Assembly: GCA_964612415.1 (NCBI GenBank)
Contig: CAZTCT010000003.1
Coordinates: 10,477 to 74,476, forward strand
Reading direction: 5' to 3'
Length of the DNA stretch: 64,000 bases
From: an uncultured Candidatus Saccharibacteria bacterium
Lineage (GTDB): Bacteria; Patescibacteriota; Minisyncoccia; Phycocordibacterales; CAYRGE01
Shown: piece by piece, positions 44,371 to 57,089 of the stretch
How positions within the stretch are numbered: position 1 is the first letter of the stretch
How the letters are laid out: each line of letters begins with the position of its first letter
Notes under the pieces: model-generated
What the model was told of the DNA's origin: nothing
The model's database searches: none
What the model saw: the letters and a program-made list of their open reading frames with translations, nothing else
Position numbers and translations under genes: made by a program

Positions 44371-44407
44371 AGAAAAACGGCTCAACCGATCGGTTGAGCC
44401 GTTTTTT
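44371..44407. terminator. 24-nt perfect palindrome CGGCTCAACCGATCGGTTGAGCCG flanked by A- and T-tracts (bidirectional terminator; repeated element)
   Basis: Palindrome 44378-44401; AGAAAAA upstream, TTTTTTGG downstream; sits 3' of PfkB gene (-); identical copy at 53916-53939. Confidence 0.75.
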
Positions 44408-46373: not shown

Positions 46374-46383
46374 GACGAGAATA

Positions 46384-46415
46384 CGGCTCAGCCAATTGGA
46401 TGAGCCGTTTTTATT
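46384..46415 (+). terminator. intrinsic terminator, variant of the repeated palindrome (CGGCTCAGCCAATTGGATGAGCCG + T5)
   Basis: 7-bp outer stem CGGCTCA/TGAGCCG with inner palindrome CCAATTGG; followed by TTTTTATT. Confidence 0.75.
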
Positions 46416-49826: not shown

Positions 49827-49877
49827 TGTGGATAAGTTTGTTTCTGGAGTGGTGTGTGGTGCGCTAGAATAAAGCCA

Positions 49878-51650
49878 ATGAAGAAAATAACGCACTATTC
49901 GCGCGTTGCTCTCGATACGCTAGTTTTTTCTCTGTCTGGGCTTGCGCTTGGAGCGGCCGGAATGTTCTCGTTCTTTTTCTTGATGACGGCTTTCCCTGAC
50001 GCTGGCACTGTAGTGGTGCCACCAACACTTCATGGACCACAGATTGCATTTGCAGCACCACCGGCTGGATATACGGAATTGAAAGGATTTGCATGGGCAG
50101 GATCACACAACAGTGGAACGATCGGATCGCCGGATATTGGAAGTGGGTGGATTAGTTTCAATAGGAAAGATTGCGATACCGATGGGGATGGCGATAACGA
50201 TGTTGCTGCATGTGGTGCACTTGGGAGTGCTGTGCCTGACTATCAAGTCTCTGTTGATACGAGCAATTACTCCAATGAGCTACCAAACCCAACCACAGGT
50301 GATTTTACCGGGTATGCCTGGAGCCCAAACATTGGGTGGATATCTTTTAATCCAGCTGACCTTGTTGGGTGTCCTGTTGGTGCAGCAAACCCTGATGGAG
50401 ATGGTACGACTTGTGAGGCAACAATAAATTGGTATACCGGCACTGTGGCTGGCTGGGCTCGCGTTCTTTCAAACGATACCGCCGCGGGATGGAGCGGATG
50501 GATTCGGCTGGACCTCCCTGTTCCTTATGGGGGGTATTCTGTTAAGCCAGCGTTCACTGGGTATGCCTGGGGCGCAGACAATGTTGGTGGGTCTCCGACG
50601 CCTGGGGTTGGGTGGATAAGTTTCAGCAGTTTTGATTGTGACACTGATCAGAATGGCACCATTTCTGGTGGTTTGCCCGCGTGTGGAACTACCGGGAATC
50701 CAATTGCGCAATATGGGGTTACTTTAGGCAGTATTGCCCCTGGGCTTCCTATTGTGTTTGCTCCAACCGAGATTGTTCTAGATACCCCTCCTGGGTATGC
50801 GCAAGCAAATCTAATATACGAATCCTACAACGGGTTTTACCCAATTGATCCTGATGATGAGCCAGTTCAGTATGGCTTTGACTGGGATGGCGATGGGCTT
50901 GGGTATGTATGGGAAACCAACCCCGTTAATGGTCTACCGGTCTATATCGGTGCGCCAGGCACTGGAGGTACGTCAACGCCTCGATGGACCACCTTGGGCA
51001 TGAAGACATTTAATGTGAAGTTGCGTGATGGCGATCTGAATGAATCAGCCGTACGCTCATATTCTATAAATGTGATTCCTCCACCACCAACAGCAACCTT
51101 TACTGTCCAGCCGACCAATGCGCTTGGTACGGGAATCACAGGAAGTACAGTGGGAATTTTGGATGGGGGTACTCCAGGAGCTTTTCTTTATTCATGGACA
51201 AGTAATCATACAACGTCATGTGCTGTTACCCGAAATCCAGGATCTGTAGCGGTTGCTTCGTCTGGTTCATCAAATTCATCTGGGTCAGGGGCAGATACCC
51301 CTGCGACCAACACTACACAGTATTCAATTACCTGCCAGGGATTGCCATTTTCTAATCCCGCTAGTGTCACCATTAATCGCTCTGTCACTGTAAACACCAC
51401 ATGTTGGAACAATATTGACGACGACCCTGCGGGGAGGATTGGCAATGGACTTTGTGACTATCCATCTCAATCCTGTCCGGGAGTGATTGCTGGAGATCCA
51501 AATTGTATGGACCCTGATCCAGCAACATATCCTCATGAGGGTGGCACAGGAGTGGCCGCGGCGTGTGGCAACGGGGTGTGTAACGTTGAGGCAGGGGAGG
51601 GGCCATTTACCTGCACCACCGACTGCAGGCAGAACTTCCAGGAGCGATAG
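49878..51650 (+). CDS. large secreted/cell-surface repeat protein (GxAW...GWISF repeats, Cys-rich C-terminus)
   Basis: Signal/TM ALDTLVFSLSGLALGAAGMFSFFFLMTAF; four or more repeats of G[FY]AW(x4-10)GWI[SR][FL] with DCDTD(G/Q)(D/N)G; PPPP linker; C-terminal CxxC-rich region. Confidence 0.55.
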   Translation: MKKITHYSRVALDTLVFSLSGLALGAAGMFSFFFLMTAFPDAGTVVVPPTLHGPQIAFAAPPAGYTELKGFAWAGSHNSGTIGSPDIGSGWISFNRKDCDTDGDGDNDVAACGALGSAVPDYQVSVDTSNYSNELPNPTTGDFTGYAWSPNIGWISFNPADLVGCPVGAANPDGDGTTCEATINWYTGTVAGWARVLSNDTAAGWSGWIRLDLPVPYGGYSVKPAFTGYAWGADNVGGSPTPGVGWISFSSFDCDTDQNGTISGGLPACGTTGNPIAQYGVTLGSIAPGLPIVFAPTEIVLDTPPGYAQANLIYESYNGFYPIDPDDEPVQYGFDWDGDGLGYVWETNPVNGLPVYIGAPGTGGTSTPRWTTLGMKTFNVKLRDGDLNESAVRSYSINVIPPPPTATFTVQPTNALGTGITGSTVGILDGGTPGAFLYSWTSNHTTSCAVTRNPGSVAVASSGSSNSSGSGADTPATNTTQYSITCQGLPFSNPASVTINRSVTVNTTCWNNIDDDPAGRIGNGLCDYPSQSCPGVIAGDPNCMDPDPATYPHEGGTGVAAACGNGVCNVEAGEGPFTCTTDCRQNFQER

Positions 51651-53528: not shown

Positions 53529-53597
53529 TATTGCGCTTGGTGGCCAGAATAGGGTAGTATCTTCTAGTACACCTGGGCAGATATACAACAAACAAAC

Positions 53598-53615
53598 GCC
53601 ACCTTAGCTGTTTTG
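53598..53615 (+). repeat. tRNA-Thr 5'-fragment (GCCACCTTAGCT + GTTTTG), degenerate partial copy upstream of the tRNA
   Basis: 12-nt identity to tRNA positions 1-12 followed by 6 nt matching the anticodon-arm segment. Confidence 0.6.
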
Positions 53616-53676
53616 GCAGATATGGAACAAACAGCAAGGACGTTAATGTAATGAGGTAGAACAAAATAATACACAC

Positions 53677-53752
53677 GCCACCTTAGCTCAGTTGGTAGAG
53701 CAACTGTTTTGTAAACAGTAGGTCCCCGGTTCAAGCCCGGGAGGTGGCTCCA
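53677..53752 (+). tRNA. tRNA-Thr (anticodon UGU), CCA encoded
   Basis: Cloverleaf: acceptor GCCACCT/AGGTGGC, D-arm GCTC-AGTTGGTA-GAGC, anticodon stem ACTGT/ACAGT with loop TTTGTAA (TGT at 34-36), T-arm CCCGG-TTCAAGC-CCGGG, 3' TCCA. Confidence 0.9.
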
Positions 53753-53885
53753 CAAAGTGCGAGACGACTAAGCGAGCAAACTGCTTTGCTCGCGTCCGGG
53801 CTTGAAAGACGGAGCCCTCCGCTTTTGGCGGAGGCGAGTCCGGGCAGGAGGCACTTATGAGCGGAGCGAATTTGTGACCTGACGC

Positions 53886-53906
53886 CAAGCCCGGGAGGTG
53901 GCTCCA
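53886..53906 (+). repeat. 21-nt direct repeat of the tRNA-Thr 3' end (CAAGCCCGGGAGGTGGCTCCA), att-like
   Basis: Exact copy of tRNA positions 56-76, located 133 nt downstream of the tRNA. Confidence 0.8.
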
Positions 53907-53908
53907 TA

Positions 53909-53947
53909 AAATAAACGGCTCAACCGATCGGTTGAGCCGTTTATTTT
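53909..53947. terminator. second exact copy of 24-nt palindrome CGGCTCAACCGATCGGTTGAGCCG flanked by AAATAAA / TTTATTTT
   Basis: Palindrome 53916-53939 identical to 44378-44401. Confidence 0.75.
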
Positions 53948-53968
53948 GGGAAGTTTATGTGTTTTGTA

Positions 53969-53974
53969 TATAAT
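53969..53974 (+). promoter_or_regulatory. -10 box TATAAT 6 nt upstream of pheS ATG (leaderless-type)
   Basis: TATAAT 53969-53974; ATG 53981. Confidence 0.4.
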
Positions 53975-53980
53975 GGGCGG

Positions 53981-54724
53981 ATGAAGGAATCTTCTCAAAA
54001 GCCCTCAGAAGGACATCTCCATCCCGTGACATTGCTTACCAATGAGCTTCTTGCTGCCTGTACCAAACTTGGGTTTGAGATTGTTACAGGCCCTGAAATA
54101 GAGGAGGAGTATTTCAATTTTGATGCGCTTAATGTTCCTAAAGATCATCCTGCCCGAGACATGCAGGACACCTTTTGGCTTAAAGGAGAGCCGGGGAAGC
54201 TACTTCGTACTCATACCTCCGCAGTGCAGGCACGTTTCTTACGTGAACATGCTCCACCGCTTCGTATCGTTGTGCCAGGCAAGGTGTTTCGTTATGAAGC
54301 GACTGATGCTACCCATGAGACACAATTTTTCCAATTAGAAGGACTTGCAATTGATAAAGACATTACACTTGCACAGCTTAAGGAAGTATTGGAAACACTC
54401 TTTAAAATACTTTTTGGCGACAATGCAATGATTCGTTTCCGTCCGGCGTTCTTTCCCTTTGTTGAACCCGGAGTGGAGGTTGATGTGTCTTGTTTTCTTT
54501 GCAGTCAAAAAGGCTGTTCGCTATGCAAACAGTCTGGGTGGATAGAAGTTATGGGAGCGGGGATGGTCCACCCCAATGTGCTTTCAGAAGCTGGTATTCA
54601 TCCTCGTGAGTGGCGTGGGTTTGCGTTTGGATTCGGCATTGACCGACTTGTGATGCTTAAATACGGGATTGAGGATATCCGCCTTTTCTACTCAGGGGAT
54701 CTTCGTCTGATTAATCAATTTTAA
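53981..54724 (+). CDS. pheS: phenylalanine--tRNA ligase alpha subunit (short form)
   Basis: FNFDALNVPKDHPARDMQDTFWL (motif 1 region); GWIEVMGAGMVHPNVL; FGFGIDRLVML (motif 3). Confidence 0.85.
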   Translation: MKESSQKPSEGHLHPVTLLTNELLAACTKLGFEIVTGPEIEEEYFNFDALNVPKDHPARDMQDTFWLKGEPGKLLRTHTSAVQARFLREHAPPLRIVVPGKVFRYEATDATHETQFFQLEGLAIDKDITLAQLKEVLETLFKILFGDNAMIRFRPAFFPFVEPGVEVDVSCFLCSQKGCSLCKQSGWIEVMGAGMVHPNVLSEAGIHPREWRGFAFGFGIDRLVMLKYGIEDIRLFYSGDLRLINQF

Positions 54725-54728
54725 AAAT

Positions 54729-57089
54729 ATGCTCATTTCCTATAGGTGGCTTTCTACATATTTCAAAGACCCGTTGCCTGCACCCCGTGACCTTGCTGAT
54801 GTTATCACTATGCATGCGTATGCGGTTGATCGGGTTTATGAACAAGGAGGAGACACCATTTTAGATATAGATGTGTTGCCAAACCGTGCGCCTGACAGTC
54901 TTTCTCATCGAGGCGTTGCAAAAGAAGTCGCTGCGCTTTTACAAAAAGAGCTTGTGTTGCCCGCACGCTTCCTCCCCGAGAAATTATCTGAACATGAGGG
55001 GATAAACATCAAGATTGAGAATTTGTATGAATGCGGACGGTATGTGGGAAGGGTGATACACGGTGTTAAGATTGGCCCTTCTCCTGATTGGCTTGTTGAG
55101 CGGCTCACTGCCGTTGGACAAAAGTCTATTAACAACATTGTTGATATTACAAATTACATTCTTTTGGACATGGGGCAGCCGATGCATGCTTTTGATCTGG
55201 ATAAAATATCCGGGAAAGAAATTTCTGTCAGGAAGGCAAAAGACGGTGAGCATATAAGCACACTTGATGGGAAAGATGTTGTACTTACATCAACAATGCT
55301 TGTTATTGCTGATACGGAAGGACCACTTGCCATTGCGGGGGTTAAAGGGGGTAAAAAAGCAGAGATTACTAGCGAAACGAAAAGCATCGTTCTTGAGGCT
55401 GCTCATTTCAACTCTGTTTCTGTGCGGAAGACCGCTCGAAGCACTGGGATTTTGACTGACTCTTCGAAACGTTTTGAAAACGGCATTACCCCAGAGTTGG
55501 CTGGGTATGCCATGGATGAAGCATCTGCGCTCATCTATGAAATTTTTCCTGAAGCGCAAGTTTCTCCGACGATCGACCAGTATCTTTGGAAACCAAATCC
55601 ATATACCACAGGACTGAGCACCGCCGAAGCCAATGCCATACTGGGGACAAAGCTCGACGATGACCAAGTTAAAGAAGCCCTAGAGCGCGTTGGGTGCACT
55701 GTGTATTTTGAGAGGAATCCTATTTCGCGCGTGTTCACTGTCGCAAAACAAGGCGTAGGAGCTACTTACAAAAATGGAGCGAGCATACAATATCAGGCGC
55801 CACACTTATTTGATTGCTCGTCTTTTACTGCGTATGTTTTTGCTCAAGCAGGAGTGAGTATCCCGAGAATGACCGTGGATCAATATATGTATGGTGCAGA
55901 TATTGGAGAGCATGATCTTTCCCTCGGGGACTTGGTATTTGCTAATACTAAATCTGGACAGATCCATCATGAAGGGAAAGAATTTTTCCCTGGCAAAGCA
56001 GTGCCTGAAGGAGTTGATCATTGCGGGATCTATCTTGGCGATGGAAAGATCGTGCATGCTACACGGCACGGAAAAGGTAAGGTAGTTATAGAGGAGCTGG
56101 CAGGTAGCGAAGCGTTTGAGAATATCATTGGGTATAGAAGGATTCCCGAAGTCCATGCCCCAAGGTTTGTGGTGGTAGTGCCGGCAGAGAGACTTGATCT
56201 GCGGGACGTTGTCTCGCTCTCTGAAGAAGTGGGACGTATTGTCGGCTATGATACATTACCGGACAGTATACTTTCAAAATTATCTCAGTCTCCACAAATC
56301 AACAAGAGTTTCTACTACACACAAGCAATCAGGCAAACCCTTAAGGAAGAAGGATACTCTGAGGTAATAACCTATGCGTTTACAGACAAAGGAGAGATTG
56401 AGACTGCAAATCCAATTGCATCAGACAAAGGTTTTCTTCGCCCCAATCTGACCAGTGGAATCACAAAAAGTCTCGAAATGAATGCGCGAAATGCTGATTT
56501 AATCGGTGAGAAGTGCATCAGAATATTTGAAATTGGGACTGTGTTTACAAAAACGAGTGAGCACCTCTCGTTTGGTATTGGGGCATGGCATCCGAAGGGC
56601 TATAAAGATAAAGCGATAGATGAAATCACTCGTGTACTCGGTGTCCTTGAGAAAAAGCACGGGTGTGTGTTTGGGGGCAGCTCGCAAGGAGATAAAGAGA
56701 AAGCAATTTACGAATCAAATTTTAAAGAAATCATTCTTTCCTCACCGGAACCGTCGGACTACGGTTCACTCTTTGAAGCACAAGAGAAAGTGATTGAATA
56801 TAAAAAGATATCTCCGTATCCGTTCGTTACTCGTGATATCGCATTTTGGGCAAGTGGCGGGACGAAAGAGGAGGAGGTAATGGCCACCTTAGTATCTAGC
56901 GCTGGACCGCTTTTAATCCGAGAGCCGAGACTCTTTGATGTATTTGAGAAGAAAGATGAAGGGAAGGTATCATATGCGTACAGACTTGTTTTTCAATCGT
57001 ATGAAAAAACGCTCACTGATGATGAGGTGAATAAGCACATGGAAAATGTAGTACGTGCGGTTGAAGAAAAAGGGTGGACAGTGAGATGA
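54729..57089 (+). CDS. pheT: phenylalanine--tRNA ligase beta subunit carrying an inserted NlpC/P60 (papain-like) domain
   Basis: B1 N-term MLISYRWLSTYFKD; B3/4 ...MHAFDLDKISGKEISVRKAKDGEHISTLDGKDVVL...; B5 start; then DCSSFTAYVFAQAGVSIPRMT...GDLVFANTKSG...DHCGIYLGDGKIVHATRHG (NlpC/P60 Cys-His-His) at ~55750-56110; B5 end/B6-7 resumes at RFVVVVPAERLDLRDV; C-terminal FDX-ACB. Confidence 0.85.
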   Translation: MLISYRWLSTYFKDPLPAPRDLADVITMHAYAVDRVYEQGGDTILDIDVLPNRAPDSLSHRGVAKEVAALLQKELVLPARFLPEKLSEHEGINIKIENLYECGRYVGRVIHGVKIGPSPDWLVERLTAVGQKSINNIVDITNYILLDMGQPMHAFDLDKISGKEISVRKAKDGEHISTLDGKDVVLTSTMLVIADTEGPLAIAGVKGGKKAEITSETKSIVLEAAHFNSVSVRKTARSTGILTDSSKRFENGITPELAGYAMDEASALIYEIFPEAQVSPTIDQYLWKPNPYTTGLSTAEANAILGTKLDDDQVKEALERVGCTVYFERNPISRVFTVAKQGVGATYKNGASIQYQAPHLFDCSSFTAYVFAQAGVSIPRMTVDQYMYGADIGEHDLSLGDLVFANTKSGQIHHEGKEFFPGKAVPEGVDHCGIYLGDGKIVHATRHGKGKVVIEELAGSEAFENIIGYRRIPEVHAPRFVVVVPAERLDLRDVVSLSEEVGRIVGYDTLPDSILSKLSQSPQINKSFYYTQAIRQTLKEEGYSEVITYAFTDKGEIETANPIASDKGFLRPNLTSGITKSLEMNARNADLIGEKCIRIFEIGTVFTKTSEHLSFGIGAWHPKGYKDKAIDEITRVLGVLEKKHGCVFGGSSQGDKEKAIYESNFKEIILSSPEPSDYGSLFEAQEKVIEYKKISPYPFVTRDIAFWASGGTKEEEVMATLVSSAGPLLIREPRLFDVFEKKDEGKVSYAYRLVFQSYEKTLTDDEVNKHMENVVRAVEEKGWTVR

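Follow-up and report, generated by a model that had tools for sequence, protein, structure and literature searches.

A small structured insert between copies of the tRNA-Thr 3' end in Patescibacteria

Introduction

What is recorded at a tRNA gene that is followed, a short way downstream, by an exact second copy of its own 3' end? The question arises in the 64,000-nt stretch of contig CAZTCT010000003.1 analysed here (hereafter the window), in which tRNA-Thr(UGU), the single tRNA in the 64 kb, and a copy of its 3' end enclose a spacer of exactly 133 nt. A sequence-only reading of this locus had seen in it the remnant of an excised or decayed integrative element, or an integration hotspot. Here we show that the spacer is a structured module with homologues at the same site in other lineages, and we propose, with a probability of about 0.5, that it derives from a tRNA-regenerating, site-specific insertion, now reduced to a cassette of ~154 bp that lacks open reading frames (ORFs) and is either similar to a cis-mobilizable element (CIME) or a miniature element.

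By the Islander definition, an island restores its target tRNA, and a displaced fragment of the gene is left behind (PMC4383910); phage Ms6 has its attB in a tRNA T-loop (PMC1762012). CIMEs, which are decayed integrative and conjugative or integrative and mobilizable elements (ICEs or IMEs), keep attL and attR and lose the recombination genes (PMC5704250), and integration has been described as a pervasive source of tRNA gene fragments (10.1101/2022.07.05.498093). The window genome belongs to the Patescibacteria (Paceibacteria-type); among GTDB species representatives, the best match to its PheS has 67% identity, and the top matches are all Patescibacteria metagenome-assembled genomes (MAGs). 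Loci of relatives that were compared with the window are designated by L-numbers.

Results

A duplicated tRNA 3' end followed by native-looking flank

ARAGORN and Rfam (RF00005, 70.8 bits) agree on an intact tRNA-Thr(UGU) with encoded CCA at 53677..53752 on the + strand, where the sequence-only reading had also placed it. Its last 21 nt (tRNA nt 56-76, 53732..53752, +) recur exactly at 53886..53906 (+). Repeat and shuffle analysis showed that this 21-mer, CAAGCCCGGGAGGTGGCTCCA, has exactly these two occurrences in the 64 kb and that a second match appears in 0/100 shuffles, even at <=3 mismatches, so the copy that had been noticed 133 nt downstream of the tRNA is not due to chance. The identity block runs from the T-loop to the CCA, and 3 of the next 4 nt past the repeat also agree (CAAA vs TAAA).

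The distal copy leads into an A-rich stretch and a terminator, as intact tRNA-Thr genes do in L088 and L011, while the intact proximal tRNA-Thr has no terminator of its own. An inverted-repeat search resolved this terminator, already recognized as a palindrome in the sequence-only reading, as a perfect 40-nt (20+20) palindrome flanked by A and T runs at 53908..53947, that is, a bidirectional intrinsic terminator. It is kept in L087 with a central change from ATCG to TACG that leaves it palindromic, and it is presumed to be the native terminator of tRNA-Thr. Judged from the sequence, the downstream repeat appears to behave like an attL/attR pair, in which the proximal copy forms the attL-like junction and the distal, attR-like copy, with its native-looking flank, is presumably the displaced native 3' end.

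A structured module shared by distant lineages

The cassette measures 154 bp and consists of the replacement copy of tRNA nt 56-76 plus the 133-nt structured spacer; its ends, CAAAGTGCGAG... and ...GTGACCTGACGC, are not inverted repeats. Along the + strand, the spacer opens with an 18-nt linker (CAAAGTGCGAGACGACTA, 53753..53770), which in alignment is weakly similar to the linker of L093, and continues with hairpin 1 (HP1, 53772..53793), folded as a 9-bp stem (53772-53780 with 53785-53793) with a CUGC loop. It is followed by a segment that we call anti-T (UCCGGGCUUGAA, 53795..53806, an inverted repeat matching at 11/11 positions) and by hairpin 2 (HP2, 53816..53834), in which folding pairs CCTCCGC (53816-53822) with GCGGAGG (53828-53834). 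The last part, 53838..53881, was dissected by direct-repeat search and holds a second segment, GUCCGGGC (53838-45), which is complementary to the 3' strand of the T-stem, a degenerate forward copy, CCGGGCAGGAGGCAC (53840-54), and the helix of hairpin 3 (HP3). A hairpin-CGNG-UCCGGGC unit occurs twice in the spacer. Both hairpins described in the sequence-only reading exist, though they are longer than claimed.

Homologous modules were found at the same place in L019 (PheS 58% identical to that of the window) and L093 (67%). L019, from a Minisyncoccia MAG, carries its module in the first bases of the contig, where it was found by BLAST of the spacer against all fetched loci; its order is HP1 AGCAAGCAAACTGCTTTGCTTGCG, UCCAGAUUUGAA, the hairpin GUUUUUCU/AGAAAAAC, a third helix and AAATCTGGGAGGTGGCTCCA, then the pheS promoter. 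In L093 the order is HP1, UUCGGAGCUCGAA, the hairpin GUCCCGC/GCGGGAC and then a run of N. The L019 module adjoins pheS and the L093 module lies downstream of tRNA-Thr. All three share the succession of HP1, a segment of 11-12 nt that complements the local T-loop/T-stem, and HP2; HP3 and the copy of the tRNA 3' end are seen in the window and L019. The HP1 core, CAAACTGCTTTGC, is kept in L019 and L093, its pattern matches only those two among 94 loci, and a covariance model of the module matches only the window, L019 and L093 in ~390 kb of related loci plus the window. Thus a cassette family occupies this site in at least two other Paceibacteria lineages, and the window module belongs to it. The modules of this family, which is undescribed, are small, structured and in part derived from tRNA, and they lie at the 3' end of tRNA-Thr in Patescibacteria. 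Very distant hosts carry the module in collinear form, so that it behaves as a unit and not as independently truncated debris.

That this arrangement stems from chance similarity, or from misassembly at a conserved tRNA, is extremely improbable. Relatives' contigs do often break at the tRNA or at the palindrome, but the same architecture is present in three independent assemblies and the shuffles never produced a second 21-mer. The breaks themselves (L087, L019, L003, L097 and L098, each at position 1, and the end of L092) are an assembly effect of conserved or repeated sequence.

Several other identities of the spacer were rejected. The only ORFs over it are antisense, 58-66 aa long and run through the tRNA, none of them credible, which disposes of a small ORF and agrees with the earlier statement that the spacer has none. 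HP1 and HP2 have no U tract and were dismissed as terminators. ARAGORN finds no transfer-messenger RNA, a T-box has no Rfam match, and a miniature inverted-repeat or insertion-sequence-derived transposon is contradicted by the lack of terminal inverted repeats and by a repeat made of 21 nt of tRNA. The covariance-model search that the sequence-only reading had proposed for the spacer matched no Rfam family: matches to Rfam 15 were confined to the tRNA, and the spacers of the window, L019 and L093 had no credible match (E<0.3).

Compensatory change in the stems

The window and L019 modules are 62% identical over 136 aligned nt, and all 32 pairs of their consensus structure form in both. Both sides have changed in 10/32 pairs, against 0-3 in slid-partner controls, for a structure that was derived from the same 2-3 sequences. 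The compensatory changes are spread over four helices, with one pair in HP1, 3 pairs in helix 2 and 3 pairs in the HP3 region (consensus helix 4). The sequence of the HP2 stem has been wholly replaced, yet it is a perfect hairpin in all three lineages, and the L019 module folded alone reaches z = -3.7. These results modify the view of the locus as a decayed remnant. The att-like repeat pair, and a polymorphism bounded by the repeat that is described below, support an integrative origin; however, the spacer is conserved and covarying in lineages with PheS at 58-67%, where a freely decaying scar would differ. The att-scar interpretation is right in outline, but incomplete.

The anti-T segment and a possible host RNA

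Over 53796-53806, the anti-T of the window matches tRNA 53730-53740 (T-loop and 3' strand of the T-stem) exactly in reverse complement, and it can form 9 bp with the distal copy. The anti-T of L019 is the exact complement of TTCAAATCTGG, the T-loop/T-stem of tRNA-Thr in its 93% relatives, and that of L093 matches the intact tRNA of its own scaffold with one indel. Because the match covers lineage-specific loop bases in reverse complement, anti-T is not a decayed forward copy. It spans U54, U55 and C56, whereas the distal copy lacks U54 and U55 in the window and L019, and C56 as well in L019. A second, shorter piece complementary to the T-stem lies 3' of HP2 (GUCCGGGC at 53838-45 in the window, CCCAGA in L019).

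Folding of the full 230-nt precursor predicts -109.5 kcal/mol (z = -4.6), while the tRNA and trailer folded apart sum to -99. In the predicted fold, the tRNA 5' strand pairs with the distal copy, the proximal T-loop/T-stem with anti-T, and the second T-complementary piece with the distal T-stem strand. When the L096 tRNA is joined to the L019 module, the composite is predicted to take the same form, a tRNA with a giant T-loop insert, 4-7 kcal/mol better than its separate parts. These forms are purely thermodynamic predictions, and co-transcriptional folding and processing would favour the normal tRNA over the long fold.

These features invite the explanation that the module is a host-functional structured RNA, an old tRNA-derived 3' trailer that was passed on vertically and was deleted repeatedly between the repeats. 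Such a trailer could give rise to a stable small RNA, or it could take an alternative fold in which anti-T captures the T-loop/T-stem while the acceptor and T stems are closed by the distal copy. We regard this as the main rival to the insertion, possible if somewhat unlikely. It draws on the covariation in four helices and the replaced HP2 stems of three lineages, on an anti-T that tracks the lineage's T-loop and complements 11-12 nt of the intact tRNA, including the U54/U55 missing from the distal copy, and on the predicted gain of the precursor fold (-109.5 vs -99 kcal/mol) with the same long form in the L096/L019 composite. The G-U pairs on the + strand and the terminator directly 3' of the distal copy also suit it. 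The module is nevertheless patchy even among close relatives, being absent from L096-98, L095, L088 and ~10 other loci, a distribution that speaks against an essential role; no Rfam family matches it, the structure comes from the 2-3 sequences themselves, and sequestering the T-arm of what may be the only tRNA-Thr(UGU) copy (64 kb seen) would be costly.

Occupied and empty sites

In L096, L097 and L098 (PheS 93% identical to that of L019), the CCA of an intact tRNA-Thr joins GAAAGTTGTTAAAATCTCTTTTTTCGTTATAAT at once, which makes these loci empty sites. The flank GAAAGTTGTTAAAATCTC... lies directly 3' of the tRNA in L096-L098 and follows the module-end copy in L019; the four loci are collinear from the repeat onward, and upstream of it L019 has the module and the others the tRNA body. 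The module is also absent from L095 (84% identical to L019), from L088, which is fully syntenic with the window and has a plain promoter-tRNA-terminator unit, and from about 10 other tRNA-Thr loci. Occupied and empty loci thus co-exist, and the module is an insertion/deletion polymorphism whose limits are set by the repeat of the tRNA 3' end. This contrast, the outcome of the comparison of related loci that the sequence-only reading had proposed, has its junction exactly at the repeat and was observed for the homologous module of the L019 lineage, not for the window's own lineage.

Closer to the window, the contig of P0001 (PheS 88%) begins inside the terminator palindrome. In an 80-82% relative, the gap between the hypothetical gene and pheS is 397 nt, compared with 452 in the window and ~298 expected without the cassette, which hints that something similar to the cassette is present there.

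A hotspot for partial tRNA copies

The sequence-only reading had also considered an integration hotspot, and the flanks of tRNA-Thr in relatives are indeed rich in partial copies of the gene: several of the 14 tRNA-Thr loci compared statistically carry significant ones nearby. L005 has a full-length, decayed tandem pseudo-tRNA-Thr at 1623-1790, followed by a terminator, and a 50-nt insert that forms a hairpin interrupts the 3' copy of this pseudo-tRNA within the 3' strand of the acceptor. In L007 and L011 an inverted copy of the T-arm/acceptor precedes a forward one, and L088 has an inverted degenerate copy (18/22) past its terminator. In L093 (3116-3255), an intact-looking tRNA-Thr ('nn' in the anticodon region) is followed by 34 nt, by a clean displaced 3' half, from the anticodon loop to the 3' end, of a different tRNA-Thr allele, and then by the module; this arrangement reflects either several integrations in succession or a scaffold that is chimeric. 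The intervening genes and the tRNA are inverted together in L011. This implies inversions that had a breakpoint at the 3' end of the tRNA, the place at which L007 and L011 show the inverted partial copies. The many partial direct and inverted copies in relatives mark the site as a rearrangement hotspot.

Such copies raise the alternative that the module is neutral debris, made of decayed tandem tRNA-Thr duplicates or displaced 3' fragments that have no function and are kept tRNA-like by gene conversion. The degenerate forward piece of the tRNA 3' end (CCGGGCAGGAGGCAC), the twice-repeated hairpin unit and the resemblance of the HP1 core to tRNA nt 21-35 (13/15, p~0.03) would be expected of debris, and the tandem pseudo-tRNA of L005 and the displaced half of L093 provide examples of it. 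Collinear conservation at saturated divergence and fully compensated stems would not, and forward gene conversion cannot maintain anti-T, since this segment is a reverse complement, of lineage-specific loop bases, rather than a forward copy. This origin is accordingly unlikely.

Search for a mobility apparatus

Among the 42 window ORFs tested against Pfam, none has an integrase, transposase or other recombinase domain; they are housekeeping genes, cell-envelope genes or ORFs without a Pfam match. The 133-nt spacer contains no integrase and no credible ORF, and no TnpB, IscB, IS110-type or other recombinase gene was found in the window or in any locus. BLAST of the spacer plus terminator against phages and plasmids gave no match, scans of viral sequences with the 21-mer, the upstream 20-mer (see below) and the HP1 pattern gave nothing, and no parent ICE or IME of the cassette was found. 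A 20-mer from L019 matched five related IMG/VR contigs, all within coding sequence, and these matches were set aside as chance.

Intervals of 1-2.6 kb separate tRNA-Thr from pheS in some relatives, and an integrase among their genes was rejected, as they contain ordinary genes in either orientation. In L004, L007, L011, L022, L037 and L059 these intervals hold genes for a thioredoxin-like membrane protein and a family-2 glycosyltransferase, again in either orientation; the identities come from sequence inspection, with a Pfam match on record for only one.

By analogy, the module might instead be a structure- or RNA-guided recombination site, at which folded single-stranded DNA or RNA would present anti-T to the target T-arm and a recombinase encoded elsewhere would act. 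A target-complementary segment that adjoins a target-identical copy, a structure kept while the sequence is not, and the occupied/empty polymorphism all accord with it. We consider it very unlikely, as the window and loci contain no recombinase, TnpB, IscB or IS110-type gene, the module lacks terminal inverted repeats, and the proposal is based wholly on analogy.

An older partial duplication upstream of the tRNA

A second tRNA-like sequence lies upstream of the gene. The sequence-only reading had described it as an 18-nt fragment 62 nt upstream of the 3' CCA, composed of tRNA positions 1-12 and part of the anticodon arm. The fragment exists, but it starts 79 nt before the tRNA 5' end, with a gap of 61 nt, and is better described as a degenerate copy, free of gaps, of tRNA-Thr positions 1-23 together with the 6 nt of flank on their 5' side (53592..53620, +; 83% over 29 nt). 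Aligned with 53671-53699 it is identical at 24/29 positions (local alignment p~0 in 200 shuffles), and ACGCCACCTTAGCT is exact at both 53596-53609 and 53675-53688. A 19-nt direct repeat with 89% identity, GGCAGATAT..AACAAACA (53576-53594 and 53615-53633, +), was found by repeat search to bracket this pseudo-5' copy.

Overlapping this copy, the 27-mer CGCCACCTTAGCTGTTTTGGCAGATAT (53597-53623) is identical at 27/27 positions to L004 868-894 (PheS 62% identical). In L004, too, it stands in the interval from the same small gene to the tRNA-Thr downstream, and the remaining intergenic region is unalignable. Compared with the tRNA D-arm, the 27-mer carries the same substitutions in L004 as in the window, so it predates the split of the two and looks constrained. 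Among the fetched loci it occurs in no other, and L088 has a compact promoter at that position. A promoter function was rejected for lack of consistent -35/-10 spacing in the window and L004, no pairing partner that would explain the 27-mer was found, and a metagenome scan with the upstream 20-mer TTAGCTGTTTTGGCAGATAT gave six chance matches, none beside a tRNA-Thr, so that the motif is not widespread.

The idea that the upstream copy (nt 1-23) and the module (from ~nt 22) are halves of one old tRNA was also discarded as weak; it is based on the similarity of GAGCAAACTGCTTTG to GAGC-AACTGTTTTG (p~0.03), and L004 has the first part without the second. The upstream copy had been taken for an att scar; it is not an obvious one but a partial duplicate of flank and 5' tRNA, whose 27-mer is identical in L004, and it is separate from the downstream repeat and older.

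Genomic neighbourhood

The gene order around the locus is rpmE, prfA, a gene for a 598-aa protein, rpsB, tsf, a small hypothetical gene, tRNA-Thr, pheS, pheT, a gene for a C39-like peptidase and gyrB, and the gene order of this block is also present in L088. Downstream of the insert, and outside it, the pheS promoter (TTGGGA-17-TATAAT) and the pheS start at 53981 occupy 53946..53981 (+).

Several features of this neighbourhood were recorded in passing. The 598-aa ORF between prfA and rpsB (window 49854-51650) has no Pfam match and has a hydrophobic N-terminal segment and a Cys-rich C-terminus. The beta subunit of phenylalanyl-tRNA synthetase (window 54729-57089) carries, at PheT aa 355-414, an NlpC/P60 peptidase-like domain inserted after the B5 domain, and precomputed annotation gives an equal architecture in L088, L090, L094 and L095. 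In the pheS coding sequence, ACATTGCTTACCAATGAGCT (window 54029-54048) resembles the reverse complement of tRNA-Thr nt 9-31, with 0/200 shuffles as high; this likeness is probably a coincidence in a conserved coding region. The 30-nt core of the terminator palindrome, AAACGGCTCAACCGATCGGTTGAGCCGTTT (53913-53942), recurs exactly at 44375-44404 and in a degenerate version at 46383-46410, also intergenic, and the genome therefore reuses one palindromic element of terminator or repetitive extragenic palindrome type.

Discussion

The arrangement found here can be understood if an insertion of the tyrosine-integrase kind replaced tRNA nt 56-76 and pushed the original 3' end and its terminator downstream. 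The cassette, which today has no recombinase gene, would then be either a non-autonomous mini-element or an extreme CIME-like remnant that selection has preserved. Given that no terminator precedes 53908, transcription of the tRNA would run on through the cassette as far as the native terminator and give the tRNA a hairpin-rich 3' trailer. The flanking direct repeats of 20-21 nt would allow precise loss of the cassette, which would explain its patchy distribution; an empty site at the window locus would read ...GGTTCAAGCCCGGGAGGTGGCTCCATAAAATAAACGG, and a circular or tandem junction would read ...GTGACCTGACGC-CAAGCCCGGGAGGTGGCTCCA-CAAAGTGCGAG.

Several observations weigh against this insertion. 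The covariation of the stems indicates selection on structure, unlike a dead scar, and an anti-T that tracks the T-loop of its own lineage fits long residence and co-evolution better than recent horizontal arrival; both features suit a functional host RNA equally well. The larger, integrase-carrying insertions suggested by the sequence-only reading are absent between such repeats in the relatives compared, and neither the cassette repeat nor HP1 has a match in IMG/VR, in phages (INPHARED) or in plasmids (PLSDB). A crossover in the T-loop would predict a T-stem-like inverted half-site next to the identity block at attR, where there is none, and 154 bp is near the lower size limit for recombinase-mediated excision. 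The homologues are themselves incomplete, as the L019 contig breaks off before the tRNA side and the L093 scaffold contains gaps, and the polymorphism may reflect either a gain in L019 or repeat-mediated loss in L096.

Comparison with known systems shows how far the putative cassette departs from each of them. As in tyrosine-integrase islands and prophages, an intact tRNA and a displaced 3' fragment form the repeats, native flank follows the distal copy, and sites are polymorphic for occupation. In contrast to those elements, the repeats here enclose only 133 nt, which hold neither an integrase nor cargo; attR has no recognisable inverted core half-site, and the insert is itself partly tRNA-like and structurally conserved. 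Like CIMEs, the cassette retains att-like repeats, which are presumably functional att sites, without recombination or transfer genes, and other partial tRNA fragments gather at the same site (L093). CIMEs, however, are kb-sized and contain pseudogenes, whereas the cassette, at ~150 bp, is ORF-less, about a hundred times smaller and collinear across divergent hosts. We know of no ICE or IME parent in Patescibacteria.

The partial copies adjoin the canonical gene, as do known tRNA fragments and pseudo-tRNAs (10.1101/2022.07.05.498093), but in the window they come with conserved non-tRNA hairpins and a host-tracking reverse-complement T-arm segment. Two further systems resemble the cassette in structure. 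Integron attC and the attP of the CTX phage are recombination sites with a conserved fold rather than sequence. The cassette hairpins are likewise kept under free sequence change, and an internal strand is predicted to pair into a target-mimicking duplex; the cassette nevertheless lacks an integron integrase or Xer context. The 3'ETS-leuZ of Escherichia coli is a functional tRNA 3' external transcribed spacer. The cassette, too, is a non-coding segment 3' of a tRNA, probably co-transcribed with it and ending at a terminator, but it has no known target and holds the 3' part of its own tRNA both as a copy and as an anti-copy. That the ~150-nt module is active today, as a miniature cassette with anti-T-guided site choice and a recombinase in trans, or as a trailer that switches between tRNA and long form, seems doubtful.

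Duplicated tRNA 3' ends are usually read as island endpoints or dead scars, and here such a duplication encloses a tiny, gene-less insert with conserved architecture. Modules and repeats of this kind interrupt metagenomic assemblies and can mislead the annotation of tRNA genes. A mobile module would be an integrative cassette of unusually small size and would give a first means of approaching site-specific recombination in the reduced genomes of Patescibacteria. If it is a host RNA, it would be an undescribed tRNA-derived trailer that could modulate the maturation of tRNA-Thr(UGU), possibly the only copy in the genome.

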